Shown: positions 4,518 through 52,700 of the stretch, in pieces | Position numbering within the stretch: the first letter of the stretch is position 1 | Layout of the letters: the number at the start of each line of letters is the position of its first letter | Virus record (IMG/VR): IMGVR_UViG_2703718819_000006 | From: a virus | Lineage: Duplodnaviria; Heunggongvirae; Uroviricota; Caudoviricetes | Length of the DNA: 64,000 nt | Strand: one strand, 5' to 3' | The notes under the pieces: model-generated | The model's input: the letters and a program-made list of their open reading frames with translations, nothing else | The model's database searches: none | Told to the model about the DNA's origin: nothing | Program-made: the position numbers and the translations under genes

Positions 4518-4577
4518 TTATGTGTTTAAACAAGGCTTACAAATCAAAGAGAAGGTGGGGATATCCCCCACCATATG

Positions 4578-6893: not shown

Positions 6894-6966
6894 GTATCAC
6901 CAAATAAAGAGGGCCACTAAATATAGTGGCTCATGTTAATAGATAAGCACTTACCTATCAATGAAA

Positions 6967-7536
6967 TCAAATGAGAGACTTAAGAACATCGCGCACCTGG
7001 CGGAACTGATCTGTTTGCATACCGGTATGGATGGCAGCCACCGCATCAGCCAAATGTTCGTTTTTGTTCACGAGAACATCCTGTCCAGATTGCTTACGAC
7101 GCAGCCACGGTGCTTTAGGGTGTTTTTTCGTAGCCCACTGGATAATCTCTTCTTTCGATGTAGTAAGTTTATTGCCGACAAAATGCTTGATTTCGTTTGG
7201 AGTAACCTGGATCAATGGCTTATCCACACACGCAAGTACACCGATACAAATACCGTAAGACGTCTGCGAACGAGAGTTTTGGCTCCCAACCGGTAGCTCA
7301 CAAAAAACCATATTTGCCTTATCAATGATTGGCTTCGCAACACGCCATATTTCACTGGCTCGGCGCAGATCGTCACTGTTCACACGAACGGTCTTTTTGT
7401 TACTCCCCGCTTTAGTCTCAACAAGAGTAAGGCCGTGAATCTCAAGTTCGTCCGTCTCAAGGTCTAAAGTGCCCACAGCAAGCCCAAAGTTGCTCATTGA
7501 GGGATCAACACCAACTACGCTGATTTTTTTACTCAT
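6967..7536 (-). CDS. RuvC-like Holliday junction resolvase
   Basis: 189 aa; N-terminus VVGVDPSMSNFGLAVG resembles the RuvC first strand (ILGIDPG...); C-terminal HLADAVAAIHTG. Confidence 0.6.
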   Translation of the reverse strand: MSKKISVVGVDPSMSNFGLAVGTLDLETDELEIHGLTLVETKAGSNKKTVRVNSDDLRRASEIWRVAKPIIDKANMVFCELPVGSQNSRSQTSYGICIGVLACVDKPLIQVTPNEIKHFVGNKLTTSKEEIIQWATKKHPKAPWLRRKQSGQDVLVNKNEHLADAVAAIHTGMQTDQFRQVRDVLKSLI

Positions 7537-11510: not shown

Positions 11511-11764
11511 GTGTTTTTCCTTTGTGGTTATTTTGATACAAATTTTAAGAGCAATGAGAAGGTAAACAACTATGCATAACGGTATGTTAGGAATGAAACG
11601 AGCGCATTAATATACAAAATTTATAAGTAAGTATATACCTATTTGTTGTGACGCAACTTTGCTTGTCTGTATGACTAAAAATAAGACAGGATCACTGTAG
11701 AACGCTATGAGAGCTATTTTGAGGGGGCGTAGATTCTATCTACGCCAATATACGATCTGGAGGG

Positions 11765-12409
11765 TTACAGCGCGTCAGTGGGCTTTTTACGCGCTGCGTT
11801 TATGCTTATGACGCCAGCTTTTGGACGTGGGTCAACAAGGTTAAGCTCTTCTTCACTGTGGTATTCGAGGTCGAACTCACGTTTTACATGTCTGATGTAG
11901 ATTGCGGTGAGTAGGCTATCTTTGGTCAAAAAGTGTCCGTAGGATTTGCGGATCACTTCTTCAACCTTCTCGATTTTCTCACCACCCATGCAGAGGTGAT
12001 TAAACCGGCTGTGTTTCCGCAACATCTCGTCAACTGGGCCTGAGTAAACCTTGTCTACTTTCCCAAAACGAATGATTTTTCCTGTATCTGCGGATACAAG
12101 GCAAATCAGTTTGTCTGGTGATAAACGATCTCGCCACGTCACACCTGAACGGAGTGTGTTGAAGTAGGGGGCATCCAATCCGATGATCGGTTTACGAAAT
12201 GCGAGCAATGGAACGTACCTAATACAACTATTCAAATGAAAGTTCACACCAGCCTTATCAAGTTTAATTCTGGTTTCGTAGATCGGGCACTTCGCCGCTA
12301 TACCGCAGATATCACAAAGTAACTTCTGCTTATTCAGGTTGGAATTTGATTCGATAGTGTAGGAGCCGTCCTCAAGACGACGAACCCAGCGCGTGCGTTT
12401 TAGATCCAT
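11765..12409 (-). CDS. hypothetical protein (Cys-containing, possible zinc-binding)
   Basis: 214-aa ORF with CDICGIAAKC; no family recognised. Confidence 0.45.
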   Translation of the reverse strand: MDLKRTRWVRRLEDGSYTIESNSNLNKQKLLCDICGIAAKCPIYETRIKLDKAGVNFHLNSCIRYVPLLAFRKPIIGLDAPYFNTLRSGVTWRDRLSPDKLICLVSADTGKIIRFGKVDKVYSGPVDEMLRKHSRFNHLCMGGEKIEKVEEVIRKSYGHFLTKDSLLTAIYIRHVKREFDLEYHSEEELNLVDPRPKAGVISINAARKKPTDAL

Positions 12410-12496
12410 AATCGTTTTTTCAGTAGTTATTGGCCGATGCTACGATAACTCATTAGGCATACCTTAATCTGCATTTGCCTGTTTACTTATCCCAGT

Positions 12497-12568
12497 TATC
12501 CACTGGATAGATCCAAATAAGAGATCCCAAGTAAGATCAAATAGAAGATCCAAAGAGATCCCCGATCG
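12497..12568. promoter_or_regulatory. DnaA-box-like site plus GATC cluster (origin-proximal module A)
   Basis: TTATCCACT at 12497-12505, then six GATC sites within about 60 bp (12510-12568) embedded in about 11-bp direct repeats. Confidence 0.5.
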
Positions 12569-12610
12569 CCTCTAGCCGTTGCGGTTACTGGTCTGAAAGG
12601 GTGTTGCCAT

Positions 12611-12710
12611 CCACTATGGAGAGCAAAGAAACCTCTGTAGAGAGCTGAATAACCGCTATGAAGAGTAAAACAACCACTCTGGAGAGCTGTATATATCCAC
12701 TGTAGAGAGT
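12611..12710. repeat. iteron array A (5 direct repeats, about 21-bp period)
   Basis: CCACTATGGAGAGC / CCTCTGTAGAGAGC / CCGCTATGAAGAGT / CCACTCTGGAGAGC / CCACTGTAGAGAGT starting at 12611, 12632, 12653, 12674, 12697. Confidence 0.7.
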
Positions 12711-12720
12711 AGAGCACATT

Positions 12721-12880
12721 GTCTTTTATGGATAACTTAATGACTTAATTCTTCATTAACATACTGATATACATAGATATATTTTAAACTCTACTCTTAG
12801 TCATGATTCTTATGTCCTTAAATATCCACAGAAGAGTAGAGTTACCTGTTCTTGAAATCCTCTGATTTTTATCCACAGGC
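12721..12880. promoter_or_regulatory. AT-rich spacer with perfect DnaA box (TTATCCACA at 12869-12877)
   Basis: Visibly AT-rich stretch between the two iteron modules; consensus DnaA box at its right edge and a near-consensus ATATCCACA at 12822-12830. Confidence 0.45.
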
Positions 12881-12991
12881 CCGATCCAGTAATTCAGATC
12901 ACAAAGAGAACCAAAGAGACCCATAAAGACCCAATAAGATCCCCGCCCACCTCAAACCGTTGTGCCATCTGCCTTCAGACATGATCGATAT

Positions 12992-13110
12992 CCACTATAG
13001 AGAGCGAATAATCCACTATAGGGAGCAAAGCAACCACTATAGAGAGGAGAAAAACCACTATAGACGGTAGGATAACCGCTGTGATGAGTGCTACTATCCA
13101 CTGTAATCAG
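12992..13110. repeat. iteron array B (6 direct repeats, 21-bp period) immediately upstream of rep
   Basis: CCACTATAGAGAG-type cores at 12992, 13013, 13034, 13055, 13076 (degenerate) and 13097; preceded by GATC sites at 12883, 12897, 12938, 12983. Confidence 0.75.
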
Positions 13111-13151: not shown

Positions 13152-14207
13152 ATGAGCGAAAACGGCAATAAAAACATAGCGATCGTTGAAGCATTTTCAG
13201 AAACAGATAAAAAGACAGGCGAAGTTGTTACGTTGGTTCCTAACACTAATAACACTGTTCAGCCTGTTGCTTTGATGCGTCTGGGCCTCTTCGTTCCGAC
13301 GCTGAAATCGACATCCAGAGGAAGAAAGGGGCAAATGGTCTCTATGGATGCCTCTGCTGAACTCAAACAGCTGTCTCTGGCAAAAGCCGAAGGGTACGAA
13401 GACATAAGGATCTCTGGCCTTCGGCTTGATATGGATAACGACTTTAAAACGTGGGTGGGAATAATCCACGCGTTTGCCAAACACAAGGTCGTTGGCGATA
13501 CTGTCACGTTGCCGTTCGTTGAGTTTGTAAGGCTGTGTGGCATTCCGACCGCCAGGTCATCAGCGAAGTTACGCAAACGCCTGGACAGTTCGCTAAGCCG
13601 TATTGCCACAAACACCATCTCGTTCCGTAGCAAAGGCTCTGATGAGTTTTACGTAACGCATCTTGTGCAAACGGCAAAATATAGTGTCAAGCACGATACG
13701 GTCGAACTGAAAGCAGATCCCAAGATTTTCGAACTCTACCAGTTCGACAAAAAGGTTCTTCTGCAACTCCGGGCTATAAACGAACTCTCAAGAAAAGAAT
13801 CCGCTCAGGCGCTTTATACTTTTATTGAAAGTTTGCCGCCTGATCCGGCACCAATATCACTAGCCCGTTTACGCGCCAGACTTAATCTGACAAGTCGCAC
13901 TATTACTCAGAATGCGACGGTAAGAAAGGCTATGGAACAGCTGCGAGAGATAGGATATCTCGATTACACGGAAGTTAAGCGCGGAAACTCGGTCTACTTC
14001 GTCATCCACTATAGGCGGCCAAAGTTACGCCAGGCACAAATATCAACAAAAATCGATAATGATGAGACGGAATATAGCCTCCCAGATGAGAATCAAGATG
14101 ACATTATCGACGTTGTGCCTGACGAAAAAGAAGGCAAAATGGTCATGTTGAGTAAAGAAGAACTGGCACTTCTCGAAGAGTTGCGCAAGGCAAAGACTCG
14201 CAAATAG
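13152..14207 (+). CDS. repA: iteron-binding replication initiator (RepA/RepE-like)
   Basis: 351-aa plus-strand ORF flanked on both sides by iteron arrays; the segment [13 protein letters not shown]...[14 protein letters not shown] parallels the RepE region AMRLYESLCQY...IVSLKIDWIIERYQL as I recall it. Confidence 0.65.
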
Positions 14208-18299: not shown

Positions 18300-18350
18300 A
18301 ATTAACTTAACCTTTTAACAAATTGTTTTCTTGTGTGTGATAATAACGAG

Positions 18351-19521: not shown

Positions 19522-21861
19522 TTACTCTTCTACTGACTCGGTGGGATTGTCTTTTGATCTCCGGTCGTCGATTGCCTGTAAAGCCGCAATGATTTCAGCT
19601 AGTGGCTTCTCCCGATACATCTCGACGATCTGTGATTTGGTGTATTTCTTGTCACCAATTTCTACTCGACCGCTGGCGTTCTTTGGCAGGTATCCTTCTT
19701 CCAGCATGTACTCGACGAGCGACTCGATAACGTCGAGGCCACGAGTAGGATCGAAGTAGAATTTCCAGGTGCATTTGCCATACGGTGGTGCAACTTTGTT
19801 TTTGATGCACTCTGCGCCTACGTCCTGGCCGATCTTCTCTTTCCCATCCTTCATCACCGATGCACCGAGACGGATGCGCACAGAAGCGTAAAACTTCGGT
19901 GAATCGCCGCCTGGAGACGTAGTAGGGTCGCCAAACATTACACCGATTTTTGTGCGAACCTGATTCAAGAAGATGATGCAGGCGTTGTATTTGCGTGCCC
20001 ACAAAGCCAGAGTAGGGAAGTTCGCACTCGTCGCACGAGCCAGCGCCGTATTGTCGTTCATGTTTAGCTGATCTTTGTCTTTGGCAGTGCCTTCAGCCAT
20101 CTTTTCGAACTTCTCGGCTTTGGAGTTCGGAACCATAGACGCAAGTGAGTCAGCCACGATACAGATAGGTGCTGATTCAGGAATAAGCTCTTCATCACGT
20201 ACCAATTTAAGAATTGTGCCGATCAACTCTACAGAGTCTTCGAAGGTATCAGGCTGCTTGTATACCCACTGACCGTCATCCTCATCTGCATTCAAACCAT
20301 TGGCTACAGCCAGGCCAACGTCAAAACTGTTTTCATGATCGAGGAATACCGCCAGACCATCTTGTTTTTGAGCGGAGATCATCGCTGCTGTTGCAAGGAA
20401 TGTGTTGTGGCTGATAATCCCGTTAGACCAGAAAGAGTGTGTTTCCGGCATCGCTACGTCGAACGTTGGTGCTTCACCTTCCTCAATAGCCACGACTTCG
20501 TCGTAGAACAAGTTAGAGCCAATTACCGCTGCCAGTTGTGCAAACAGATGCTCGTTAAAACGATTCTTTCTGCCAATGAAGGAGACATAGATTTCTCGCA
20601 GTTTGTCTATTCCGACACGATCGCCGCGGCCAATAACGTGGTCTACCAGAGCGTAGTCTTCACGGGTGGTCTTGGTGAGCGACTCGTAGAGTGATTTCAC
20701 TAAGCCGCTGATGTGCGGAACATAGCCTGAGTAAGTGCGGTCAAAACCAATGTCCCGTTTGGTTGCCACTGATAAACGTGCCGGAGATTCGAAACCAATC
20801 GTTGACAGAAAAAGGTCGTAATTAGAGCCACTGAATGACAGCCGGTAATATGTATTTTCATAACCCGCGACGTGTTTTTCAGAGATAGTTGACGTAATCC
20901 CCAGATTCAGGAGCATGAGGCGAATTTGCTGTAGCAGCAGCCCACTCGCGCTCACAACCTCAATGCAGCGACCATCATTGACGTGGCATTCCAGCTCAAA
21001 GTAGCCGCGAAGGAATGCAATTTGAGCCTCGCTATTGGCGCGACGCACACTCAACGGAACCTGCTTGCCAGCAGCTTTCTCATACTCCAGACCATATTCT
21101 TTAAAAAGCAGCGAACGCACCTCTTTGCTAAACAGCACATGGTCTTCCGAGCCGTTATGTTTTCTCGTAACTGGCATCTTGTCTGATACCAGCGAAATGA
21201 GGCGGTAGTACTCATCCTTGATGAAAGGATCTGTGTTAGAAAAATTCACTGAATTTTCAGAGGCCACGTATCCGTCAGCAATTAAATAGCCCATCAGTTT
21301 TGCGATATTGGCATCCAGGTGCTGATCGCCGAATTGATGTGTGCCAACCATTGAAGGAATCGTGTCGCCTACACTGATTTTTTCAGCATGTCGCCAGACG
21401 ACATTACCTAAGTCGTCAACCACACGGATTGGGTGACGGAACGTAGCCTCGATATAACCGCCTGATGCCAGCTTAATACGCTTGAATTTGCGACGGTTGT
21501 TCCATGTCAGGTGTGAGGTCTTCTCTATCACGCCATTTTCATTGATGAGTCCAACGTTATGCTCTACATCGCGAGTAGTGCATGTCGCTTTGTACCCTTC
21601 AATCTCAAACAACTCTTTCACTGTTACCATTCCACGCTCCGTCAGCAGCATGGTGTCTGCGGTAACACATTTCCCCGCGCTTGGAGGACCGAATACTTCT
21701 ACGATACGACCACATGGGAAACCGCCATCGTAACGACCGGAAATAGCTTTGTTTAACGGAGGAAAGCCTGTGTCAATCCAATGAGTTACTTTCTGAATTT
21801 CGTCGTTGCTACCGATTTTCTTTTTCAGAGCAAGTGCCAGTGCGGATTTTCCTTTTGCCAT
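19522..21861 (-). CDS. recA: RecA/UvsX-family recombinase interrupted by an intein
   Basis: 779 aa. Exteins (about 357 aa) carry GRIVEVFGPPSAGK|T and IIFLNQVRTKIGVMFGDPTTSPGGDSPKFYASVRIRL, closely paralleling E. coli RecA as recalled. Confidence 0.85.
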   Translation of the reverse strand: MAKGKSALALALKKKIGSNDEIQKVTHWIDTGFPPLNKAISGRYDGGFPCGRIVEVFGPPSAGKCVTADTMLLTERGMVTVKELFEIEGYKATCTTRDVEHNVGLINENGVIEKTSHLTWNNRRKFKRIKLASGGYIEATFRHPIRVVDDLGNVVWRHAEKISVGDTIPSMVGTHQFGDQHLDANIAKLMGYLIADGYVASENSVNFSNTDPFIKDEYYRLISLVSDKMPVTRKHNGSEDHVLFSKEVRSLLFKEYGLEYEKAAGKQVPLSVRRANSEAQIAFLRGYFELECHVNDGRCIEVVSASGLLLQQIRLMLLNLGITSTISEKHVAGYENTYYRLSFSGSNYDLFLSTIGFESPARLSVATKRDIGFDRTYSGYVPHISGLVKSLYESLTKTTREDYALVDHVIGRGDRVGIDKLREIYVSFIGRKNRFNEHLFAQLAAVIGSNLFYDEVVAIEEGEAPTFDVAMPETHSFWSNGIISHNTFLATAAMISAQKQDGLAVFLDHENSFDVGLAVANGLNADEDDGQWVYKQPDTFEDSVELIGTILKLVRDEELIPESAPICIVADSLASMVPNSKAEKFEKMAEGTAKDKDQLNMNDNTALARATSANFPTLALWARKYNACIIFLNQVRTKIGVMFGDPTTSPGGDSPKFYASVRIRLGASVMKDGKEKIGQDVGAECIKNKVAPPYGKCTWKFYFDPTRGLDVIESLVEYMLEEGYLPKNASGRVEIGDKKYTKSQIVEMYREKPLAEIIAALQAIDDRRSKDNPTESVEE
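20404..21669 (-). mobile_element. intein (about 422 aa) with LAGLIDADG homing-endonuclease domain, inserted in the RecA P-loop
   Basis: Starts with Cys right after GPPSAGK (CVTADTMLL...) and ends ...GIISHN followed by Thr (the extein T of GKT); internal LMGYLIADGY and FLRGYFELEC motifs. Confidence 0.75.
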
Positions 21862-24837: not shown

Positions 24838-27800
24838 TCACGACTTAATAGTTTCTGCTACGTCGGCTAATATCGCTTCTAGTCGTTCTCCCTCTTCAGG
24901 TCTGAAGTAAAGAATGTTGGGGTTAAACCCGTAAAAGACAGTAACGTCAAGGTCTGGAAGATACTCCTTCCTGCCGACCAAATCGGATGGCTTGTTTTTG
25001 TTGTTAAACAATGAAGTTGCCCGGCTGCCACACGTCAGCACATAGGTCGGACGCACCAGATTGATCTCTTCACGCATAAAGTCGGTGAACTGGCCGATCT
25101 CGTCTTTGGTGTAGTCCTTTTCTTTGTCTTTAACCTTCTTGCAAACGCCTGTGACATAGAGATCGCCCATGCGCAAATCCCCAGCCGTCAACAGCTTGGC
25201 CTTAAAATCGTCGTATCCGTTCTCCATAAAGTAACCGGTTCGAGCATCATTGCCGTTCGCATTGTCCAGAATGATCATGATTTTCGGCTTAATACCAATG
25301 CTGGGGCGGATTAGTTCATCACCTAAGCCCATTTCAGCCGCCATCCGCGTCATGAGTACGTTAATCTCAGCCGAACGTTTGGGGTTCATCTCAAACGGAC
25401 GTGAGGCTTTAACTGCGTCTATGACAAGGTTTCCCATCAATTCAGCCTGGTCGCGTAGGCGCTCTGGATCAGTTGCTGGCAGACTGCCTGGCTCGATGGA
25501 TGCAAACGCCCCTACTTTTTGCAGCGATTCGCGCACTCGACTATTACAGGCACGTTTCTCGACAGCTTCTTCGAATTGCGCAAGTGACTCGAATTTGCCA
25601 CCAACCTTTTCTCGCGCTCTCATGATGGCCTGGCAGCCATTCTCAGAACACCCCTTCACAGCAGAGAAGGGCGCATACAGCACCTGGCTGCCATCTTCAA
25701 GCGTGCGGATCTCAATTCGGTTAGATGACACGTTAACGTCTGGTGGCAATACGCGAATACCATAGGTCAGCGCATCTTTAACCAGCCCCTGGTGTTTATC
25801 TTCGCCAAGAATAGTGAGAGCAGCAGCGAAAAACTCTGCGGGATAATGAGTTTTCAACCACATAGATTGATAGCTGATTAAGGAGTAAGCAACAGAGTGT
25901 GATTTGTTGAACTGGTAGGCACCATTCTTTTCGAATGCGGTCCATATCTCCTTCGCTTTCATCTCTGATAGCCCTGGATGTGACGCTGTAACGCGTACTG
26001 CGTTTATAGGTAGTTTTGCGCCGTACTCAAGTGCCTCTTCGACAGTTTTCAGAGTTCCGTCTTCGCATTTAAAATGTTCCGCACGGTGAATGCGCTGTGT
26101 AGTGCCATCTTCCAGCTCAACGTCTATCCAGCCAGCTTGAGCCTGAACGATGAACTTCTCGCCCATGCTCTTCATTTTTTCCATGTCTTTTTTGCCGATC
26201 GCTTTACGAACGCCGTCAGCTTCAGCCATTGTGAAGCCAGCAAGCAATCGAGTCGCGTTCATCGTCTGTTCCTGATAGAGAATCACGCCATTTGTTTCTG
26301 CGGTAAGTTCATCAAGAACGGGGTGTAATGATTCCGGCGTCATAAAGCCTTTGGCTACAGAAACATAGTCATCCAACATGCCTGACTGAATTGGCCCCGG
26401 CCGGAAGAGCGCAGTCGTAGCAACAACCGTTTTAAAGCTCATTGGCTCAATTCCACCACCTAAATCTTTAAGCAGCTTGCGCATTGGGCCTGATTCAAGC
26501 TGGAAAACACCTTGAGTGTACCCAGCAGCAAAACCATCCAGCACCTTGCGATCTTCAAGAGAAATGGCATCAAGATTGATATCTTCACCTGTGTTCTCTT
26601 TTATGTAGCGTTTTGCACTATCGAGCAAATCGAGAGTTGCCAGACCAAGTACGTCCAGCTTAATTAGGCCCATAGCCTCGCAGTAACGCTTGTCAAATGC
26701 GATACAACGCGCGTCACCACGGCGTTCAACCGGTGTACGTTCTGTCAGAGGAACACCTGCTACGATCATCCCTGCCGCATGTCTACCAAAGCCACGCATA
26801 AGACTTTGTAACTTGCAGGCAGCATTGAATGCATCAGGGTATTTTGTCGCGTATTTGTCGAGACTTGCCAGTTGTTCGCGCAGCTCCTCCAATGGAAGGC
26901 TATCATCCTCGACGTTCTTCAGCTCTTTTGATACCGCCATATCTGCGGACTCCACACCATAAATACGAGCGGTATCACGTAGTGCAGAGGCTGCGCCCAG
27001 GTAGGTGAAGTTCGGAATGCCTGCAACGTAATCTTCGCCGTAGCGTTCATTCAGATACTCGATCACCTCATGGCGACGTGCCTGGCTGAAGTCCAAGTCC
27101 GCATCCGGCAAGTCGAGACGCTCAGGGTTGATGAAACGCTCAAACAGAAGACCGTGACGGATTGGGTCGACGTTGGTTATGCCTATGCACCACGCCACCA
27201 GAGAACCGGCAGAGGAACCACGACCAGGCCCGACAGGAATGCCAGTTTCACGACTGTGATTCATCAGATCGCGTACCATCAGGAAGTAACCACAAAATCC
27301 CAGGCGAGTCAGCGTGTCCATTTCGTACTTTAGCCGCTCAACATAAACCCTGTTCTCAGAAGCAGGTGGTGTGTAGCCAAACTCTTTTGTGGTAAGACGT
27401 TTACGCAGCCCTGCAACAGCCAGTTTCATCAGCGTTGCAGGTTCGTCGTCTGCCATCTTGGGCAGTGCTGGTGGCAATTCATGCCAGCGCCATGTGCAGG
27501 CATCGATAATGGAGTCCTGCGTTGTTGAGGCCATTGCAGCTGTTACCGGCACATCCATGCGAACGGAGAAGGCTTTAAGCGCCTCAAGGAGATGGCGACG
27601 ACCATTGATGGCGTTATCTCGCTGGTGGGGGATACGCAGACGATGCGGCTGGTCGATTTTTATGTTGTTCGTAACCATGTGCGCAATGTCTTTAATGTCT
27701 GCATCGTCGATCGATTCGTAATAAGCGGGATAGAACGCCACTGGCTCTATTTTCAATGCGCTGGCGACTTTCATCGCCCGGACGTTAATCTGGTCGTAGA

Positions 27801-28356
27801 ATGGGGTAGGGTGCGGATAAACCACACTATAGAAGTTGTCTTTTCCACCCGCTGTAATCAGTGAGCTTATGATTTTTGCAAAATCGTTGCGTTGGAACAC
27901 GCTACCGATGTCGGAAGTGAGCAGGATGATGTTGCCTTTGGCATATGTAGAAACCAACTGTTCGAGCGAGAGACGCGGTACAAAGTAGAACTGTTCTCGT
28001 GTGTTGGCCACCGTCATTAGTTCGCAGATGTCGCGATATCCTTGCTCATTTTTAATTAGAGCGGTAAACGAGTAGTTACGTCCTCGCTCTAATGATTCCA
28101 TACATCCCTTAGACTCTTTAGCAATTTTAGCCCGGTACTCGTATGTGGGATCATCAACGATATTTAGTTTCACACCACAAATAACCGCCATGTCGTCACC
28201 AGCGGCACGTTGTAGTGGAATAACGCTCGCAATATTCATGCTATCTGCTGAAATTACAGCGGTGTAGCCAGCTTCTCTGGCAATCTTCACCGCGTTTTCT
28301 GCTTTTAGAGCCGACTCCCCAAGTGAGAAGTCAGTTCGAACCATCAGTGCCTTCAT
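24838..28356 (-). CDS. dnaE: DNA polymerase III alpha-like replicative polymerase (DnaE family)
   Basis: 1172 aa; core motif [27 protein letters not shown] matches DnaE (GPGRGSGAGSLVAY...) as recalled; N-terminal PHP-like region appears to lack the usual His cluster. Confidence 0.9.
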   Translation of the reverse strand: [1172 protein letters not shown]

Positions 28357-28534
28357 GTGTTTTTACCTTTCTGGTTTTTTTGATTTTGTCATTGGGGAAG
28401 CCTACGAACTTCCCATGCATCGAAATCGCAACTTCTTTTGCTGATTGGTGACAATCGGGCTTGTCTGGACACACCAGACAAGCCTTACCAGTTTCAGAAG
28501 CAGCGATAAGAGAGCCGAAACATCCTTTACGCAC
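28331..28534 (-). CDS. possible small Cys-rich (zinc-ribbon-like) protein
   Basis: 67-aa ORF with CLVCPDKPDCH; overlaps the polymerase start by 26 nt. Confidence 0.25.
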   Translation of the reverse strand: MRKGCFGSLIAASETGKACLVCPDKPDCHQSAKEVAISMHGKFVGFPNDKIKKTRKVKTHEGTDGSN

Positions 28535-31976: not shown

Positions 31977-32074
31977 GGCTAATCCTTTGTTATGAAAACA
32001 AATTATTTACTAGTGTGTTTAATGTAGCACTGCGCGAACAGGGAACTAAGCCATTCGCGCAGGGAGAAGAGGGG

Positions 32075-32538: not shown

Positions 32539-32925
32539 ATGTCTGATAACAAGATTGAATTTATAGAAAGTCGCTATGCTGCTTTTATCGCAGGGCTGAT
32601 TGAATCCTCACCTATGAGTCAGGCCCAAATAGCCAGACTTATTGGTTATAAAAATGCCAACAACCTTTCTTTAATTAAAAGTGGCAAAATTCCTTTGCCT
32701 ATCGATAAGGTTCGTCCGTTGGCGCTGGCGCTGGGTATTGAGCCAAGTCGTCTTATGATGATGGTGCTGGAAGAACGCCAACCTGAACTCGCAGCATTTT
32801 TATACAAAGAAGGCACCGCTCCTCTTAACGAGGACGAAAAACAGGTTCTTGCTGCATATAACGAGCGATTCGGTAAAGAGAAAGGCGCATCACAAAAGGT
32901 TGTTGAGGCTATAAAGTCTCTATGA
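32539..32925 (+). CDS. XRE-family helix-turn-helix transcriptional regulator
   Basis: 128-aa plus-strand ORF; MSQAQIARLIGYKNANNLSLIKSGK resembles an HTH_XRE helix-turn-helix. Confidence 0.6.
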   Translation: MSDNKIEFIESRYAAFIAGLIESSPMSQAQIARLIGYKNANNLSLIKSGKIPLPIDKVRPLALALGIEPSRLMMMVLEERQPELAAFLYKEGTAPLNEDEKQVLAAYNERFGKEKGASQKVVEAIKSL

Positions 32926-34023
32926 AAAATTTACACGAATAAGCTCTGTTGATAGACGATCTCCCTTGAATTTGTGGTCAATTTCGTCTAAATCCGGTTG
33001 CTCTACGATTGATGCGATGTACGTCGAGAAACTTTCTAAGGCGTCTCGCATCTCGTCCATATAATCGTGCCGGTCGTAGACTCGATCTATCCCCTCAAGA
33101 CTGTGGTTCATGATTTTGCGTGATACCTCCTGGCTTATGCCTAATGCTGGGAAGTAACTACGCGCAGTACGGCGCAAGTCTCGGGGTGTAAATGGCTCAA
33201 GCTCCATCAGTTCTGGTCGTTCCAGAATACGACGTAATGCCTGGGCTATTGCCACTTTAGACATAGGAAGGTCTTTCCCGATTTTTTTATTCGAAGGCAC
33301 GAGCCACTGGCTGCCTTTACCGTATTCGAACAACTCTTCAATACATGTGCGCATTAATGTGCTTAAAGGCAGCGAATGCTCACGGGCAGATTTGTTCCTC
33401 TTGCCTTGATTCCAAACCCCATGCTTAAGATTGAACTCACTTTTTTTAGCCCGCAGTACTTCGTCAGGTCGTCTTGCGGATACAAGACACAGCCTGGCCG
33501 CCCATTTTGTACCAGCGCACACATTGAAGTAGTCCCATATATTCCAGAACACCCATACCTCTGCGTCGGTCAGCTTCCGCTCGCGAGGTGTTGGCTTTGC
33601 GCCACCGGCAACTTTGTTAAGTGACATATCGTTTAACGGTGACACGTCTATCATCCCCTGGAAGGCGCACCAGCTAAGGAACTGCTTCATCAGAGAGAAA
33701 ACGCGGCGGCCCATAACAATTTTGCCATCCAGTATTAGTGGGTTGACCAGTTGGTTCACCATGAACCTATTAATGTCACTTACTTTTACATCGGCAATGT
33801 GCGGCAAAACATGTATCAAAATACAATGAACAGCGATCTCTGGCCGACGTCTTGTTATCAGCAAAGATAAGCGAGTGAATAACATGAATGCGTCCGAGAA
33901 TCTCATGTCATTGCTGACCTGGGAGATCATAACGGCCTGCATTTGAGATGCTCTTTCGAGATACTCAATCGCCTCTTTTGAGGTGTTCTCCGCAGCGCGT
34001 GCTCTGTCAAAGCTATTTTTCAT
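32920..34023 (-). CDS. int: tyrosine recombinase (phage integrase family)
   Basis: 367 aa; box I-like LVSARRPDEV, box II-like FTPRDLRRTARS, C-terminal NHSLEGIDRVYDRHDY with candidate catalytic Tyr. Confidence 0.7.
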   Translation of the reverse strand: MKNSFDRARAAENTSKEAIEYLERASQMQAVMISQVSNDMRFSDAFMLFTRLSLLITRRRPEIAVHCILIHVLPHIADVKVSDINRFMVNQLVNPLILDGKIVMGRRVFSLMKQFLSWCAFQGMIDVSPLNDMSLNKVAGGAKPTPRERKLTDAEVWVFWNIWDYFNVCAGTKWAARLCLVSARRPDEVLRAKKSEFNLKHGVWNQGKRNKSAREHSLPLSTLMRTCIEELFEYGKGSQWLVPSNKKIGKDLPMSKVAIAQALRRILERPELMELEPFTPRDLRRTARSYFPALGISQEVSRKIMNHSLEGIDRVYDRHDYMDEMRDALESFSTYIASIVEQPDLDEIDHKFKGDRLSTELIRVNFS

Positions 34024-45970: not shown

Positions 45971-46008
45971 TGCATTGGCGCAATGTACGCGCCAATGCAT
46001 AATTTTTA
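45971..46008 (+). terminator. rho-independent terminator between convergent GIY-YIG and par genes
   Basis: 11-bp stem TGCATTGGCGC/GCGCCAATGCA with 7-nt loop, followed by TAATTTTT. Confidence 0.6.
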
Positions 46009-46365
46009 ACCTTTCTTCATCAACTCTCGTTTGATTTCATCGGTACGCATCGTGACATCGGCAGCGGTGATCGCCTCATTCAATTTCACGATGTCCTCGA
46101 TTTCCTGCGGTGACTTCTCTGCCAGATGGAAAATGGCTGCTCGAATCACGTCAGAACGAGTGAACTTCTCGAAGCGAGGGATGAACTTCATCATCTCCAG
46201 CAGTTCGAAGTATTCGTCCTCCAGTGACATTGTGCGGCTTTTAATTTTCTCTTTGCCACGAGTCGGGCGTCCCTGTGGTCTGACTGGTTGGCGCAAAGGA
46301 GTTGTGTTCTTAGCCGGTGCATCAGGCTCTTTGCGCTTTGCTAGGTCACCCATTTTCATGGACAT
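46006..46365 (-). CDS. small partition/centromere-binding protein (ParG/ParB-like)
   Basis: 119-aa ORF immediately downstream of and overlapping parA; basic Pro/Arg-rich N-terminus. Confidence 0.4.
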   Translation of the reverse strand: MSMKMGDLAKRKEPDAPAKNTTPLRQPVRPQGRPTRGKEKIKSRTMSLEDEYFELLEMMKFIPRFEKFTRSDVIRAAIFHLAEKSPQEIEDIVKLNEAITAADVTMRTDEIKRELMKKG

Positions 46366-47033
46366 TATTCTTCTTCCTCCAGACTCAACAGATAATCTAC
46401 AAATTCTTCAAACTCGGCTTCCGCCTTTTTGTCGCGCTCGCTACCGGTCATTTCAAAGATAGAACGACCAGACTCTTCCGCATCATCATAGACGTTGCGG
46501 TTATATAGATTGACTGGCGCAGACTCGATTCCAAACGTCTCAACAATCTCTTTAGCCGCCAGAATGCGAGACACTTGTGATGGCAAAGCCGGGCACTGGT
46601 TCATGACCGCGCGGACCTTCACTTTATCGTTTACATTGCGAACATTGTCGATAATAGGATCGATGTCACGTAAAGATTTCAAATCACGACGCTTAGGACG
46701 CAGCGGGATAATGATAACGTCAGCCATCAGCATCGCTTGTCGCTGAATTTCGGAGTCGAAGCCACCAGCATCTACCACTACAAACTCAGCTCTACCCTGA
46801 AGCGATTTTAGGTGCTTAATGATGTCATCCTGAACGTATGCAAAAGGAATCAGCTCAAGGTCTTCGTTCTGTCGACGGTCTTCACACCAGCTCGTTGTCG
46901 TGCGCTGAATATCTATATCGGTAATATAAACCTTCTTCTTCTTTTTGACTTTCAGGCAAACGGCAATTTGCTGGGCAACGGTGGATTTGCCAGGCCCGCC
47001 CTTTGTGCCGCCAACCACAAAGATCTTGGTCAT
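46365..47033 (-). CDS. parA: ParA-family partition ATPase (small type Ib)
   Basis: 222 aa; deviant Walker A KIFVVGGTKGGPGKST; ParA/MinD-like VVVDAGG. Confidence 0.8.
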   Translation of the reverse strand: MTKIFVVGGTKGGPGKSTVAQQIAVCLKVKKKKKVYITDIDIQRTTTSWCEDRRQNEDLELIPFAYVQDDIIKHLKSLQGRAEFVVVDAGGFDSEIQRQAMLMADVIIIPLRPKRRDLKSLRDIDPIIDNVRNVNDKVKVRAVMNQCPALPSQVSRILAAKEIVETFGIESAPVNLYNRNVYDDAEESGRSIFEMTGSERDKKAEAEFEEFVDYLLSLEEEE

Positions 47034-47351
47034 TGGAGAGTTCCCTTTGCGTATATAATTATCGTCTGAAACAACTTGTTTTCTTATATGTGATATAGCC
47101 TAAATGCCTACGGCTGCGGTGTAAAGGTTAAATGGTAGGTTGTGATTAACAATTGGCAAACATAGCTTGTATTTGTCTGTTGAAAAAAGTAACAATGACC
47201 TCTATATTACAAGTACGGTGATATGCCGTACACAATTTGATAATGCACACGTAATGGGCTATAGCCTTTTAAAGTAATTTTTGAGTCGAAAACTCAGTTT
47301 GAACAGAGGAGATTGATGGCCTTCCTACATCACGGCCATCAGGAGGAATAC

Positions 47352-47621
47352 ATGTCAGCACTAAAAAAGCAGCGCATCGATTTGAGATTAACCGATGACG
47401 ATAAAAGCATCATCGAGGAAGCTGCCGCAATGTCTAACCAGAGCATTACTCAGTTTATGGTTAGCAGTGCATCTGAACGTGCCGTGAAAGTTATAGAGCA
47501 ACACCGTAGACTAGTTCTGAATGAAGAATCCTGGAATCTGGTTATGGACGCTATAAGCAATCCTCCGGCACCGAACGACAAGCTGAAACGAGCTGCTGAT
47601 CGTCTGAAAAGCATGGAGTAG
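47352..47621 (+). CDS. antitoxin of GNAT-toxin TA system (DUF1778/TacA-like)
   Basis: Start placed at the ATG 6 nt after an AGGAGG Shine-Dalgarno (MSALKKQRIDLRLTDDDKSIIEEAA...); 8 nt upstream of the GNAT gene. Confidence 0.7.
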   Translation: MSALKKQRIDLRLTDDDKSIIEEAAAMSNQSITQFMVSSASERAVKVIEQHRRLVLNEESWNLVMDAISNPPAPNDKLKRAADRLKSME

Positions 47622-47628
47622 TTTACTC

Positions 47629-48150
47629 GTGGATAATATAAAGATAGAAATTTTCTCTGGAGAGAAAGATTATGATTTGAATGGTTTTGATTGCGGTGAA
47701 GAATCACTAAATGCCTTTTTAACCAACCACTTAAAAAGGCAGCATGAGGGAAAAATTCTTCGTGCTTATGTGCTTTGCACGAAAGAAGGCAGACCAAAAG
47801 TGTTAGGGTATTACACTTTGTCAGGTAGCTGCTTTGAAAAGGAGTCCTTACCTTCAAGAAGCCAGCAAAAGAAGGTACCTTATCGGAATGTTCCAAGTGT
47901 TACTTTGGGTAGGCTGGCTTTGGACAAGTCCCTTCAAGGTCAAGGATTTGGCTCAATGCTTGTAACACATGCAATGCGCGTTGTGTACAATGCATCTCTT
48001 GCTGTAGGCATTCATGGACTTTTCGTTGAGGCGTTAAATGACAAAGCCAAGGCGTTTTATAAAAGTTTAGACTTTATCCAGCTGGTTGGTAACAACGAGC
48101 GTTCTTTGTTCTATCCTACAAAATCTATCGAAAAATTGTTCGAAGAATAA
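47629..48150 (+). CDS. GNAT-family acetyltransferase toxin (TacT/AtaT-like)
   Basis: 173 aa; acetyl-CoA-binding QGQGFG motif; GTG start; paired with the upstream antitoxin. Confidence 0.75.
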   Translation: MDNIKIEIFSGEKDYDLNGFDCGEESLNAFLTNHLKRQHEGKILRAYVLCTKEGRPKVLGYYTLSGSCFEKESLPSRSQQKKVPYRNVPSVTLGRLALDKSLQGQGFGSMLVTHAMRVVYNASLAVGIHGLFVEALNDKAKAFYKSLDFIQLVGNNERSLFYPTKSIEKLFEE

Positions 48151-48181
48151 TGTACTCCCCTCAAGTGAGGGGAACTTCGCA

Positions 48182-48397
48182 TCACCAACCGCAAACTCTC
48201 TCTCCCATCGTATTGTGAAAAAGGATTTGGCGTTCGGTTTCTTCGGTCATCACATCATTATTGCTGATATAGATAGGCCCAGCTCCATCGCAGAACAATA
48301 CGCTGGCGGTTTGTGGTTTAATGACGCACCCACTTATCATACAACTCACGATGAACGGCAGAAGCATCTTTCTGACGTATTTTATTGCTCGTCTCAT
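48182..48397 (-). CDS. o-spanin-like outer-membrane lipoprotein
   Basis: 71-aa ORF with signal peptide and lipobox (IVSCMISGC), several Cys; overlaps the i-spanin-like gene out of frame, as in Rz/Rz1. Confidence 0.45.
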   Translation of the reverse strand: MRRAIKYVRKMLLPFIVSCMISGCVIKPQTASVLFCDGAGPIYISNNDVMTEETERQILFHNTMGERVCGW

Positions 48398-49737: not shown

Positions 49738-52700
49738 TTATTCTTCACGTGAATTTAACTTCGTTTCAAGCTCCTCAACCCTTTTGGTCAATTGCTGAAT
49801 ATGATGAATGAGTGGTACAACCAAACGCTCATACATCACTCCTTCAGCGACCATACCATTTGAGGAAATATCTTCTGGAGAATCATTATTTGTTGGTTCA
49901 CGCCAATGGACATATTGCGGGGCAATCTCACCAACCTCTTCAGCAATAAGGCCGTAATACCCCCAATCCTTTCGGTCACCTCGACAAATTGAACGATACC
50001 AAACAGGTCTTAATGACAAAAGTTCATCAGCATATCGATCTTGTAATGTTTCAATATCCTTTTTATAGCGCCTTGAAGAGGTTGAACGCCAAACTGTATT
50101 GATACCTGGGTTTGGATCAATGTACATATTGGCACCGCTAGTAGTTGTGCCAATATCCCATATAGCAAACCCTCCACTACCGCCTGATTTGACAACCAGT
50201 GTTTCAGCAATAATATCCAGGTTGCCACTATAGCCTGTCAGTGATGATCTGCTTGCATAGGAACTTAGAAGGTTTGTTACCTCTGTTTTCGTGTAAGCAT
50301 TAAGGTTAGTCGCAGTCAAAGTTATATCGGCAGAGCCATCAAACGCCACACCAGCAATTTTCCTTGCTGTCTGCAATTTTGTGGCGGTTGCGGCATTACC
50401 AGTAGTGTTCTGATTACCAGTTGTATTCACACCAGGGATTGAATCCTTAGCGGTATATACCTGCGCCCACTCTGACCATGCCGCACCTGTGTAATCTCTT
50501 CGGGAGCGAATGAAAACCGGCGCATGTGCACCGCTCGTACCACTCCAGCCAATAAGCAACTCGCCCTCACCAGCAGCACTCGCACCTTTCATGTGCAATA
50601 CGTTGCCATACGTGGTCGGGTAGCTATTGTTGTACGCCTCATACATTTGAATGCCAGCAGTGCCTTGAGTAGAGCCGCTTAACGCCGTAACTCGGCCACG
50701 AGATACCAATGTATTAATGTTGATATCGCCTGAGCCATCAAACCTAACACCATTGATGTTTCTCGCTGTTTGCAACTTCGTAGCTGTTGAAGCATTACCG
50801 TTCAAACTACCATTTACGCCACCAGTCACATTTAGTCCATTACCAATAGACACAACACCGCTGGTATTGTTAATTGTAATCGGTCGCAAGCCGTTCCATG
50901 AACCTAACGTATCTCCTGATGCTGTTAGCATGAAATATGTGCTGCCGCCGTCATTACGGATAAAGAACCCAAAGCTACCGTAAGCAATGCGGAAACCATT
51001 TGCATATTTTGAAACGATCTCACCAGAAGATGTCAAACCTCCAGATAATGTACCACCGGTAAGAGGTAATGCACCAACGTCAGATGCAGTTGGTTTGTTT
51101 TTCGTGTTATATACTCTTCGCCATCCTGGAGAATAATCTGTGCCATTAAATACATAGATAAACTCCGCATTAGTGAGAGCACCAGAGACACTCGTCGTTG
51201 TGGCCGTTGTTATACGGATCGTATAATTGTTTGAGCTACTACCGTTATTAAATACCTCTATAACAGCTCCTGCCAATGGAATAACGCCACAACCAGTTTC
51301 ACTATTTGGTATGGTTGCACTATTGGCATAGGCCCACGCACATCGAGCAATCCATGACTTTGTGTTAAATGCTCCATTATTTTGCAATAACGTCACTAAC
51401 TGTGCTGTTGTTATTGCTCCGCCATTACTTCCTGTAGTTAACCAACCAGTAGGAGATGCCGGGCAACCTATATTTGCTGGCGACAAGGAAATATTTGCCG
51501 AGCCGTCAAACGACACCCCATTAATAGTACGCGCAGTCTGCAACTTCGTAGCAGTAGCCGCGTTGCCCGTTGTATTCTGATTACCAGTCGTATTAACACC
51601 TGGCAAATTAATATTCGCAGTACCATCAAAGCTCACGCCGCCGATAGTTCTTGCCGTCTGAAGTTTTGTAGCAGTTGCAGCATTACCAGTGGTGTTCTGA
51701 TTACCCGTAGTATTTACACCTGGAAGGTTGATATTTGCAGAACCGTCGAAACCAACTCCACCGATAGATCTTGCCGTCTGCAATTTCGTTGCTGTACTTG
51801 CATTACCATTTAATGTTCCGGTGATCCCACCAGTAACAGACAACGGACCTGAAACTGTTCCTCCGGTTGTTGGCAGTGCACCAATATCTAACGGCGTCGG
51901 TTTCTGATGTGTGCTATACATCGTATAAACAACACCATCGGTAGCGCTGGAAGGCTTACTCGCTGAATATGTAGGCGATGTATAAATAGAAACTGACGCA
52001 TTTGCAGTACAATCCCAATGGATGTTTACACTCGTCGCATAATTGCCAATCTCAACGTAAATATCATATGTATCGCCGGATGTGTTGATCCAGGCGAAAT
52101 TCGTTAATCCGACGGCTGTACGCTTCCACAAAGCACCTGTAATCCCTTTGGGGTTTCCATTGCCTGCTCGTAGAACCAGTTCTGAAATGCCTGCCTGATG
52201 TGGGGAGCCGACGTTGTAACCAGCGCCACCAATCAATGCGATGTAAACGATGGAACTCGCTTGTGGCATGGTAACCGTAGCCAGTTTGAACCACCCAGCC
52301 CCGCCAGAGAAAGACATCGTTACTGAATTTAAAGTACCAATATCTTTCGGCGTTAATGTGATATCCGCAGTCAGTGCTTTACCGTTAACTTTTCTGTTAG
52401 ATGGCACCCTGCTATTCGCATTGTCATTGGCTGCTTTAACTGCTTTTGGCGTTGCGGCCAGCGATTCACTGGTGCTGTCGACAGCACTGCTAAGTTTCAC
52501 AACACCTTTGGTGGTAAGGCTTGCGTCTTCCATCGCAACTGCATCGGCAATCTCTTCAGCACGATCAGCGGCAGCTTCCGCACGGGTCGCAGCGGATTCA
52601 GCAGCAGTTTTGCTCTGAGATGCAGCTGTCGCACTGCCTGCCGCCTCTGTTGCCTTTGTTGACGCTATCACAGCACTTCCAGCAGCCTCAGATGCTTGAC

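Follow-up and report, generated by a model that had tools for sequence, protein, structure and literature searches.

The DNA analysed here is a stretch of 64,000 nucleotides (the window), which at 46006-48150 carries two divergent operons separated by 318 bp. One encodes a small ParA and a protein of 119 amino acids that overlaps it; the other encodes an antitoxin and a GNAT toxin. All four open reading frames of the ORF list were found at the coordinates given in the original prediction, and the partition genes and the divergent toxin-antitoxin (TA) pair claimed there were confirmed in identity and orientation. A chance origin of this four-gene arrangement is excluded. The arrangement is an ordinary and already catalogued one, of the conventional partition-plus-addiction kind. 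The features of the locus, together with those elsewhere in the window that bear on it, are as follows.

12609-12711 and 12992-13064: 21-bp iterons upstream of RepA
13152-14207: Rep_3 RepA, preceded by the iterons
32539-32925: HTH repressor, a candidate binder of the shared element at 47063-47095
32920-34023: tyrosine recombinase
45085-46007: slot A, the variable cargo flank of par beyond the partner gene
45186-45953, + strand: GIY-YIG protein of the PD-T4-3 anti-phage defence family (Pfam LEM-3_GIY-YIG, E 5.5e-7; PADLOC PD-T4-3, E 1.3e-23)
45968-46002: perfect inverted repeat (14-nt arms, 7-nt loop) where the GIY-YIG and partner genes converge (repeat search), likely a bidirectional terminator
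46006-46365, - strand: 119-aa proposed partner of ParA, encoded directly downstream of it; no Pfam match; phrog_5111
46365-47033, - strand: ParA, 222 aa, a small HTH-less deviant-Walker-A ATPase, type Ib, ParF-like
47063-47095, - strand: par copy of a shared promoter/operator-like element of about 33 nt, with the palindrome AAACAA-G-TTGTTT at 47069-47081
47096-47140, - strand: par-specific conserved upstream block with two TAGGC boxes 8 bp apart (on the + strand, GCCTA at 47098-47102 and 47106-47110)
47141-48184 (end approximate), + strand: slot B with the TA cassette, flanked by the par promoter region and the Rz/Rz1 lysis genes
47180-47208, + strand: sigma-70-like TA promoter (TTGAAA-17-TATATT, 10 of 12 matches)
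47213-47231: palindrome GTACGG-N7-CCGTAC directly after the -10, read from the sequence
47352-47621, + strand: antitoxin, 89 aa, DUF1778/TacA family, of the AtaR/KacA ribbon-helix-helix (RHH) type
47629-48150, + strand: GNAT toxin, 173 aa, GTG start, of the AtaT/KacT type
48154-48175: GC-rich hairpin where the toxin and Rz1 genes converge (predicted on the - strand, 9 pairs), likely a terminator

SSU5-type phage-plasmids, to which the window belongs, are common in clinical E. coli, Salmonella Typhi (pHCM2), Shigella and Klebsiella and carry resistance genes, and for these reasons their persistence matters. Here we separate backbone from cargo around par, correct a misleading label of the partner protein ("RelE/ParE toxin") and define a 63-bp candidate control and partition site upstream of parA. 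The conventional partition-plus-addiction picture is left unchanged by these findings.

Partition genes and the DNA upstream of parA

ParA has the deviant Walker A motif K11-G-G-P-G-K16-S17 (residues 11-17), signature lysine included, and matches the MipZ, AAA_31, CbiA and ParA families of Pfam as well as phrog_164 ("ParA-like partition protein", E 4e-51). The nearest solved relative is ParF of TP228 (4dzz, E 1.2e-10), in which residues 8-189 align to residues 9-199 of ParA. The protein is 91% identical to SSU5_033 and scores 115.7 bits against the NCBIfam model ParA_partition, which is under the cutoff of 180. The motif and the ParA/ParF profile matches bear out the ParA that had been predicted. 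The label "MipZ", given to some orthologues in RefSeq, was rejected because it merely mirrors the top Pfam match.

The stop codon of parA and the start codon of the partner gene overlap by 1 nt (TAATG), in agreement with the overlap originally claimed. This overlap holds only for the reading of 119 aa; RefSeq reads the protein as 117 aa, starting at the third codon. ParA stands immediately upstream of the partner, with an overlap of 1-8 nt, in 10 of 10 distant species-representative loci (down to 35% partner identity), and the coupled start is favoured for that reason. Homologues of the partner are few (25 and 18 in two very large libraries), and phrog_5111 is a family of unknown function; judged from the sequences recovered, the partner is a member of a very small orphan family, always encoded directly behind ParA.

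AF2 models of the partner (pLDDT 63-67) have residues 1-47 disordered and contain four helices. The N-terminal tail bears a conserved G-D-L-A-K motif and is followed by a basic linker; L8 is invariant and K10 nearly so, and R44, S47, E49, R70, D72 and R75 are invariant. The core (about residues 42-84) is probably a ribbon-helix-helix, followed by two C-terminal helices. This fold is hinted at by sub-threshold RHH_1 matches over residues 49-85 in two divergent family members (E 0.005 and 0.11) and by a match of the partner to aCcr1, an RHH protein. A ParG/RHH profile had been suggested as the check for the partner. Its RHH part came out as these sub-threshold matches, and its ParG part did not stand, since similarity to ParG could not be detected (hhalign probability 0.1 for each of the two alignments; the ParG query sequence was checked against 1P94). 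Fold searches with the partner returned no structural match, and nothing meaningful was obtained with 12 family members in Pfam at E <= 10 or with the partner in a PDB profile search. No ParB match was found in Pfam or NCBIfam, so that the partner lacks the combination of ParB/Srx domain and HTH that marks type Ia. By analogy, the partner is proposed to be the centromere-binding adaptor of ParA.

Upstream of parA, a core of 63 bp (47063-47125) shows a mean pairwise identity of 0.969 with 57 of 63 positions invariant, compared with 0.632 at the third codon positions of parA; it is conserved to the level of second codon positions. From its sequence, roughly half of this core is a promoter/operator-like element that is common to at least five operons. 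Because unrelated operons share this half, the conservation of the core need not reflect partition. The palindrome of the element lies 35 nt before the parA start. The element occurs in the window in five intergenic copies, all on one strand, the other four being at 4497-4529, 18310-18342, 31990-32022 and 44131-44163, with matching positions in SSU5 and Cyrano and none in shuffled sequences. Its palindrome is found at about a dozen sites per genome in uniform orientation, and the operons concerned include DNA-metabolism and early operons. No canonical -35/-10 pair could be fitted to the element by eye, and nothing relevant to the palindrome was present in the literature searched. Besides the HTH repressor listed above, a LexA-like S24 protein encoded outside the window is a further candidate binder. 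As a promoter/operator motif spread over the whole element, the shared sequence could serve to map the lysogeny regulon.

The par-specific block (47096-47140) is the best candidate for the partition site, the par promoter or both, as far as can be inferred from its position and conservation, and TAGGCA within it is a possible -35. A generic repeat search at the locus gave no clear centromere repeat array of the type Ib kind and just short repeats at chance level. Sigma-70 promoter-like sites were not enriched (5 found, 4.0 +/- 1.8 expected), and no Rfam RNA family was found in the searched sequence.

Toxin-antitoxin cassette and variable flanks

The antitoxin ORF is listed as 47313-47621 (+) with a TTG start. 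The true start is almost certainly the ATG at 47352, which is preferred because the protein then aligns with KacA and AtaR from residue 1 and because a Shine-Dalgarno sequence (AGGAGG) lies 5 nt upstream. With the start so moved, the DUF1778-like antitoxin of the original prediction is upheld by PF08681 (TacA1, = DUF1778; E 8.6e-26) and by KacA (5zgn_A, E 6.6e-42), with which it shares 70 of 87 residues (80%), and the operator-reading residues R8, D10 and R12 are retained. The toxin gene begins after a gap of 7 nt. Its assignment as a GNAT toxin is likewise sustained, by Pfam Acetyltransf_1/7 and by matches to AtaT (6gts, E 8e-79, 119 of 172 residues identical, 69%) and KacT (5zgn_C, E 3.7e-74). 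The acetyl-CoA loop QGQGFG (residues 103-108) and Y144, equivalent to Y145 of KacT, are present. The TA promoter is kept in an allele of 89% identity, and in the Ec1585m1 allele the arms of the palindrome behind it are conserved and the spacer differs. This palindrome is a candidate operator for the antitoxin or the TA complex. The operator of KacAT is a palindrome across the transcription start (PMC6698736).

The cassette was present in 152 of 5426 E. coli genomes, exclusively on plasmids and on no chromosome, and is carried by about 58% of the E. coli relatives. It is missing from SSU5, PhiR41_1, pHCM2 and pSTM_Phi, and homologues occur on 285 conjugative plasmids. Homology of SSU5 and PhiR41_1 to the window resumes at 48185-48200, past the cassette. 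Further relatives have different cargo in slot B or have it empty; for the alternative cargo no PADLOC model matched, and Pfam was blank for most of it. By this comparison of sequences, the TA pair is exchangeable cargo and no fixed part of the kit. Slot A varies in the same way, the GIY-YIG gene being replaced by DUF2971 or different genes in Cyrano, SSU5 and others. Between the two slots lies the par block (46008-47140), a conserved backbone at whose ends the homology with relatives begins and stops. The inverted repeat at 45968-46002 is assigned to slot A, outside the par block, since this homology begins at 46008.

The phage-plasmid, its replicon and expression in a lysogen

Synteny and identity to genomes of the SSU5 group, together with phage structural and lysis genes, identify the window as part of an SSU5-type phage-plasmid of E. 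coli. The par/TA locus is 99.9% identical to circular, non-mobilizable E. coli plasmids of about 110 kb and about 97% identical to phage Cyrano (97-98% across phages Cyrano and CMS-2020a). The par block was found in 264 of 5426 complete E. coli genomes, in each case in plasmid records and at no chromosomal place; about 774 plasmid records contain it. According to the literature, Cyrano has been shown experimentally to be a plasmid of 5.5 copies that makes virions, and it is induced by ciprofloxacin (PMC9928086). The original prediction of a phage maintained extrachromosomally is supported by these records and data, in which the element is neither solely integrated nor strictly lytic. The extrachromosomal state was essentially known already, given the published account of Cyrano.

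An iteron replicon and a tyrosine recombinase had also been claimed, and both are present. Every element named as part of a "complete plasmid stability kit" was therefore recovered, but completeness in the sense of a fixed set does not hold, as the TA pair is exchangeable cargo and the recombinase is lineage-specific. For the latter, no homologue was found in SSU5 over the range searched (13-103 kb), and its gene lies within a lineage-specific island; on this sequence evidence it is not core to the SSU5-type group, and for the same two reasons its role as a multimer resolvase is putative only. Outside the window, the same element encodes a MinD-like ATPase and two ParB-nuclease-domain proteins. 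In the annotation of SSU5 and Cyrano, the ParB-like genes adjoin genes for a UvsW helicase and an ABC-type ATPase near the genome end and have no ParA beside them.

Published transcript values for the Cyrano lysogen are 50 for ParA and 89 for the partner, at a background of about 10, and 592 for the antitoxin and 344 for the toxin (S1 Table, PMC9928086). One hour after macrophage entry, the TA transcripts have reached log2 ~15, up from ~8-9 in LB (PMC9928086).

Interpretation and comparison with known systems

The locus is best explained, with a probability of about 0.82, as a pair of distinct modules for the maintenance of an SSU5-type phage-plasmid, namely a backbone par operon (46008-47140) and an exchangeable TA cassette (47141 to about 48184). 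By analogy with type Ib systems, an ATP dimer of the ParF-like ParA would associate with the nucleoid. The folded core of the partner, probably an RHH dimer, would bind a site within the ultra-conserved 45-75 bp or so upstream of parA, which would also autoregulate the par operon, and the disordered tail with its G-D-L-A-K motif would stimulate the ATPase of ParA, so that about five plasmid copies would be distributed to both daughter cells. The TA cassette would act as a pair of the AtaR/AtaT (= KacA/KacT) type with its own promoter and palindromic operator. From the identity of 69-80% to characterised pairs, we infer that the toxin halts translation by acetylating charged tRNAs at their amino group. 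A labile antitoxin would neutralise the toxin and repress the TA operon, and cells that have lost the element would be arrested (post-segregational killing). The literature searched contained no measurement of stabilising activity and no experiment on par or TA function for any SSU5-type element.

A tentative alternative, with an appreciable minority of the probability, is that the TA pair serves primarily in stress or defence, through abortive infection against other phages or through growth arrest and persistence within host cells, instead of in plasmid addiction; its position in a cargo slot beside par would then be fortuitous. The slot of the cassette hosts varied unrelated cargo, a defence gene of the PD-T4-3 type occupies the opposite flank of par, and the very strong induction of the Cyrano TA transcripts in macrophages, together with the place of the pair among defence-type cargo, suggests roles beyond addiction. 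However, PADLOC has no defence model matching the antitoxin or the toxin, the allele is restricted to plasmids and absent from E. coli chromosomes, and plasmid-maintenance activity is documented for the GNAT-type GmvAT (PMC6519299). The two roles are mutually compatible. As to ParA, its real partner could be a ParB-nuclease-domain protein whose gene lies about 70 kb off, which would leave the 119-aa protein as only a transcription factor or with an unrelated role. This is quite improbable: genes annotated as "ParB" and "ParB-like nuclease domain" exist in SSU5 and Cyrano and the 119-aa protein has no recognised family, but small HTH-less ParAs (type Ib) usually pair with small adaptors encoded directly downstream, the adjacency and codon overlap of the two genes are kept in all ten distant loci, and the ParB-like genes keep company with the helicase and ATPase genes, not with ParA.

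Two further readings concern the partner itself. In Cyrano it is annotated as a RelE/ParE-type toxin (CYRAN_29), and the database label is what speaks for this. None of the 12 family members matches a RelE/ParE family at E <= 10, nor does the partner in the PDB profile search; its predicted disordered tail and helices do not fit the RelE fold, and its gene is translationally coupled to ParA in a neighbourhood without an antitoxin-like gene. The label is thus unsupported and, on the profile and predicted-fold evidence, effectively refuted. Less far-fetched, though still unlikely, is binding of the partner to the shared AAACAA-N-TTGTTT instead of a site specific to par, which would make it a global regulator, give it dispersed centromeres, or both. 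The recurrence of the palindrome in the window and genome, its place before parA and its persistence there in relatives with just 52-61% partner identity are consistent with such binding. Against it, the Xenorhabdus/Photorhabdus/Morganella clade has the ParA-partner pair and lacks the palindrome upstream, other candidate binders exist in the HTH repressor and the LexA-like protein, and transcription of par in the Cyrano lysogen is 5-9 times background, whereas near-background levels are seen for the helicase, nrdB and CobT-like operons, which also have the element. This pattern is better fitted by a separate repressor on the shared element and a par-specific promoter. We give slightly less credence still to the partner as founder of a new class of partition adaptor recognising the palindrome common to parA and about a dozen operons. 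If this were true, one protein would couple partition, copy-state sensing and the silencing of phage replication genes; like omega or the SopB of N15, it would regulate globally and use dispersed centromeres.

The two-module reading can be set against known systems. The par operon shares with ParF-ParG-parH of TP228 a deviant-Walker-A ATPase of small size (about 200-220 aa) that lacks an N-terminal DNA-binding domain. As there, the gene directly downstream encodes a small protein, here with a predicted disordered N-terminal tail, and conserved cis DNA precedes the ATPase gene. It differs in that the partner is longer (119 aa; ParG, 76), has two extra C-terminal helices and shows no similarity to ParG that could be detected; an ACTC-type repeat array is not evident, and the par promoter includes an element common to phage DNA-metabolism operons. 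Omega of pSM19035 and the dispersed SopB sites of N15 are cases of an adaptor that regulates other operons and of sites scattered across a replicon; this precedent would suit the shared palindrome, but the Cyrano expression data argue against binding of the shared element by the partner. P1, a temperate phage, is maintained as a plasmid at low copy number through parABS and phd/doc, and its repressor operators are scattered over its genome. It resembles the present element as proposed here, a low-copy phage-plasmid with active partition and an addiction module, but its partition system is type Ia (a large HTH ParA and a ParB with a ParB/Srx domain), its toxin is of the Fic type, and the sequences are unrelated.

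For the TA cassette, GmvAT is a GNAT-type pair that promotes vertical transmission of pINV in Shigella (PMC6519299). It likewise sits on a large low-copy plasmid beside partition systems, but pINV is a virulence plasmid without phage functions. AtaR-AtaT of E. coli O157:H7 and KacA-KacT of Klebsiella pneumoniae are the closest counterparts; AtaT acetylates several aminoacyl-tRNAs (PMC7595197). They agree with the window pair in gene order, in the catalytic Tyr and the operator-reading Arg and Asp residues, in a palindrome at the promoter and in sequence (the toxin is 69% identical to AtaT across 172 residues, and the antitoxin is 80% identical to KacA). The window pair differs in the GTG start of its toxin and in its long leader (~140 nt), and, while K. 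pneumoniae HS11286 and E. coli O157:H7 EDL933 were the strains in which KacAT and AtaRT were characterised, the window allele occurs on plasmids and phage-plasmids only.

Gene content and identity of the element

The original prediction described a ParA with an overlapping 119-aa partner, followed by a divergent DUF1778-like antitoxin and GNAT toxin; this observation is confirmed and its interpretation is supported. The open reading frames are as follows.

46006-46365, minus strand, partner protein, 119 aa
46365-47033, minus strand, ParA, 222 aa
47313-47621, plus strand, antitoxin as listed (start corrected to ATG 47352)
47629-48150, plus strand, toxin, 173 aa, GTG start

The parA stop and the partner start have one base in common (TAATG). 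Profile searches matched the ParA and DUF1778/TacA1 families, and the toxin is close to AtaT and KacT.

The locus is 99.9% identical to circular, non-mobilizable E. coli plasmids of ~110 kb; it is 97-98% identical to phages Cyrano and CMS-2020a, and its par half shows 87% identity to Salmonella phage SSU5. The par block (46008-47140; both par genes and upstream DNA) occurs on about 774 PLSDB plasmids, spread over the Enterobacteriaceae, and in 264 of 5,426 complete E. coli genomes, always on plasmid records and never on the chromosome. Cyrano (pLF82) has been shown to exist as a plasmid, at 5.5 copies per cell; it produces siphovirus particles, and ciprofloxacin induces it 39-fold (PMC9928086). 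The elements of the SSU5 group are established phage-plasmids (PMC7969092; bioRxiv 10.1101/2025.09.12.675607). The central inference, that the window derives from an extrachromosomally maintained phage, is therefore right and already known.

Regarding the further claim of a complete stability kit, a RepA (Rep_3) with 21-bp iterons and a tyrosine recombinase are indeed present, but the recombinase is not part of the core. With the adjoining 128-aa gene it forms an island common to Cyrano (32539-34023; recombinase 99.5% identical), and no counterpart of either protein was found in the searched part of SSU5; the island is therefore lineage-specific. In the Cyrano lysogen, the gene corresponding to that for the 128-aa protein is expressed at about 10x above background (PMC9928086). 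The origin region upstream of repA (12509-13064) contains three more repeat sets besides the iterons; they are listed below, ahead of the two island genes.

12509-12561, repeats of about 12 bp, AGATCCAAA-type
12609-12711, 42-bp double unit
12902-12939, 10-bp repeats, CAAAGAGACC
32539-32925, plus strand, 128-aa protein, HTH 'putative repressor' in the Cyrano annotation
32920-34023, minus strand, tyrosine recombinase

Outside the window, SSU5-type elements carry a MinD-like ATPase adjoining a LexA-like S24 peptidase, and two ParB-nuclease-domain proteins adjoining ABC-type ATPases (11312-12839 and 27145-28493 of the Cyrano locus L018, corresponding to Cyrano 89.3-90.8 kb and 105.1-106.5 kb); these genes may constitute a second segregation-related or regulatory locus. 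Within the window, the RecA-like gene (19522-21861, minus strand; Pfam Intein_splicing, LAGLIDADG_3 and RecA) reaches 779 aa because it contains an intein with a LAGLIDADG homing-endonuclease domain. A 120-bp tandem repeat (51548-51808; 2.2 copies, 76% matches) lies within the 1280-aa tail-fibre gene and encodes repeated 'NTTGNQNTTGNAATATKLQTAR' peptide blocks.

ParA, its partner and the upstream DNA

ParA has a deviant Walker A box (K11-GGPG-K16-S) and matches the MipZ/AAA_31/CbiA/ParA families of Pfam as well as phrog_164, "ParA-like partition protein" (E 4e-51). Its nearest solved relative is ParF of TP228 (4dzz, E 1.2e-10, near end-to-end alignment); against NCBIfam ParA_partition it scores 115.7 bits, under the curated cutoff of 180 bits. 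Some orthologues are labelled 'division plane positioning ATPase MipZ' in RefSeq (e.g., 2860-3525 of L006, the locus of another relative), a label that looks wrong.

The strongest functional evidence on the partner is its genomic context. Its gene directly follows a ParA homologue, with an overlap of 1-8 nt, in 10/10 species-representative genomes, including those of Morganella, Photorhabdus and Xenorhabdus, in which the partner is only 35-42% identical. We conclude that it is a ParA adaptor. The family is tiny (25 matches in a library of 5.8 billion sequences; 18 representatives in a second library of 1.84 billion) and corresponds to phrog_5111, of unknown function; the Pfam search yielded no family. 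In family alignments, an N-terminal peptide (G-[DG]-L-x-K) is conserved, an acidic spacer varies, and a basic segment closes with (K/R)-S-R-T-x-S-(L/M)-E-D-E; the alignments also contain a (T/S)-R-S-D-V-x-R-A-A motif, of a type characteristic of helix 2 in ribbon-helix-helix (RHH) proteins. Sub-threshold RHH_1 matches (E 0.005 and 0.11) in two divergent members fall exactly over this last segment, and the window protein weakly matches the aCcr1 family, also of RHH type. In AlphaFold2 monomer models (pLDDT 63-67), residues 1-47 are predicted to be disordered and four helices follow; fold searches gave no match, and the profile comparison with ParG was negative. An RHH fold is a plausible prediction for the partner. 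The Cyrano annotation of the partner as "RelE/ParE putative toxin" (CYRAN_29; 3999-4358 of the Cyrano locus L001) found no support in family and PDB profile searches.

Backbone homology reaches just 107 bp past the parA start. Across ten relatives, pairwise identity in the core at 47063-47125 averages 0.969, with 57/63 positions invariant, as compared with 0.968 at second and 0.632 at third positions of parA codons. Its promoter-proximal half (47063-47095) is not unique to par. It is one of five intergenic copies in the window of a ~33-nt element, with a consensus of about TTACACAAACAAGAAAACAAnTTGTTTAAAG around the palindrome AAACAA-N-TTGTTT, all on the gene-sense strand.

4497-4529, minus strand, shared element
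18310-18342, minus strand, shared element
31990-32022, minus strand, shared element
44131-44163, minus strand, shared element
47063-47095, minus strand, shared element

The copies lie 16-35 nt ahead of the start codons of nrdB, a DUF1281-like gene, a CobT-like gene, the helicase-primase operon and parA. The element also occurs at matching positions in SSU5 and Cyrano, with about ten further copies in their early regions; shuffled sequence gave zero matches. It does not resemble a canonical sigma-70 promoter, the literature searched did not contain it, and it is putatively promoter/operator-like. Transcription of the par genes in the Cyrano lysogen is 5-9-fold over background (S1 Table), while other operons carrying the element are near the background of about 10 (helicase 21, nrdB 13, CobT-like 8) (PMC9928086); this suggests a silent or repressed state of the element during lysogeny and additional input at par. 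The distal half (47096-47140) is unique to par and carries two TAGGC boxes, spaced by 8 bp, as well as a possible -35; it is the leading candidate for both partition site and par promoter. The Xenorhabdus/Photorhabdus/Morganella clade retains the ParA-partner pair with different upstream DNA.

The toxin-antitoxin cassette

The antitoxin matches PF08681 (TacA1 = DUF1778; E 8.6e-26) and is identical to KacA (5zgn_A) at 70/87 positions; the toxin is identical to AtaT at 119/172, with KacT nearly as close. The true antitoxin start is probably ATG 47352 rather than TTG 47313. An in-frame ATG upstream (47316-47351, plus strand), preceded by a strong SD (GAGGAG), would lengthen the antitoxin by 12 residues (MAFLHHGHQEEY), as in the Cyrano annotation, and both starts have good ribosome-binding sites; the extension is missing from the divergent allele of Klebsiella grimontii and Citrobacter, and the upstream ATG is therefore probably not the main start.

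A sigma-70-like promoter (TTGAAA-17-TATATT, 47180-47208) is directly followed by the palindrome GTACGG-N7-CCGTAC (47213-47231), whose arms are retained, with a changed spacer, in an allele of 89% identity. The KacAT operator is a palindrome across the transcription start, read by KacA R8, D10 and R12 (PMC6698736); all three residues are found in the window antitoxin, and the arrangement in the window agrees with this published scheme. The toxin retains the acetyl-CoA loop and Y144, equivalent to KacT Y145. The GTG start of the toxin gene, along with a distant SD, would hold toxin translation under that of the antitoxin; attenuation by a GUG start was demonstrated for KacT4 (PMC9431474). AtaT acetylates several aminoacyl-tRNAs (PMC7595197).

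In the S1 Table rows covered, no locus of the Cyrano lysogen is transcribed more strongly than the TA operon (antitoxin 592, toxin 344), and the TA transcripts rise roughly 60-100-fold upon macrophage entry (PMC9928086). The GNAT-type pair GmvAT promotes inheritance of Shigella pINV (PMC6519299), a precedent by which the window pair may serve in addiction; a part in stress responses or defence is also conceivable. The cassette is carried by 152/5,426 E. coli genomes (~58% of par-block carriers), only on plasmids, and relatives with 68-70% nucleotide identity occur on 285 conjugative plasmids.

Backbone, cargo and known systems

Boundaries between backbone and cargo were drawn from pairwise BLAST against relatives. 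The conserved block at 46008-47140 has an exchangeable slot on each flank.

Slot A, 45085-46007, GIY-YIG gene in the window; DUF2971 or other genes in relatives
Slot B, 47141 to about 48184, TA pair in the window
Slot B in K. grimontii and Citrobacter, a second, more divergent DUF1778/GNAT allele
Slot B in SSU5, PhiR41_1, Enterobacter and Klebsiella, two unnamed genes
Slot B in pHCM2, one unnamed gene
Slot B in other Klebsiella elements, a helix-hairpin-helix protein or a 347-aa protein
Slot B in pSTM_Phi, nothing

The GIY-YIG protein (45186-45953, plus strand) matches the single-gene anti-phage defence family PD-T4-3 (PADLOC, E 1.3e-23); with this gene in the second variable slot, the par operon has a cargo hotspot on either side. 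A conserved two-gene unit (about 233-258 aa and 130-140 aa) occupies slot B in many relatives (6178-7334 of the SSU5 locus L002, SSU5_032/031; 6297-7472 of the PhiR41_1 locus L003; 3713-4839 of L011, from another relative). It had no match in Pfam or PADLOC and, because of its position, is a candidate undescribed defence or addiction pair.

Four points are modestly new: the adaptor is an orphan and is strictly coupled to ParA; backbone and cargo around par have been mapped; the 63-bp upstream core is highly constrained; and a promoter/operator-like motif recurs across the whole element. Near-identical public records already contain annotations of the par and TA genes, and a type Ib-like par operon with a GNAT-RHH toxin-antitoxin pair on a phage-plasmid is a known kind of arrangement.
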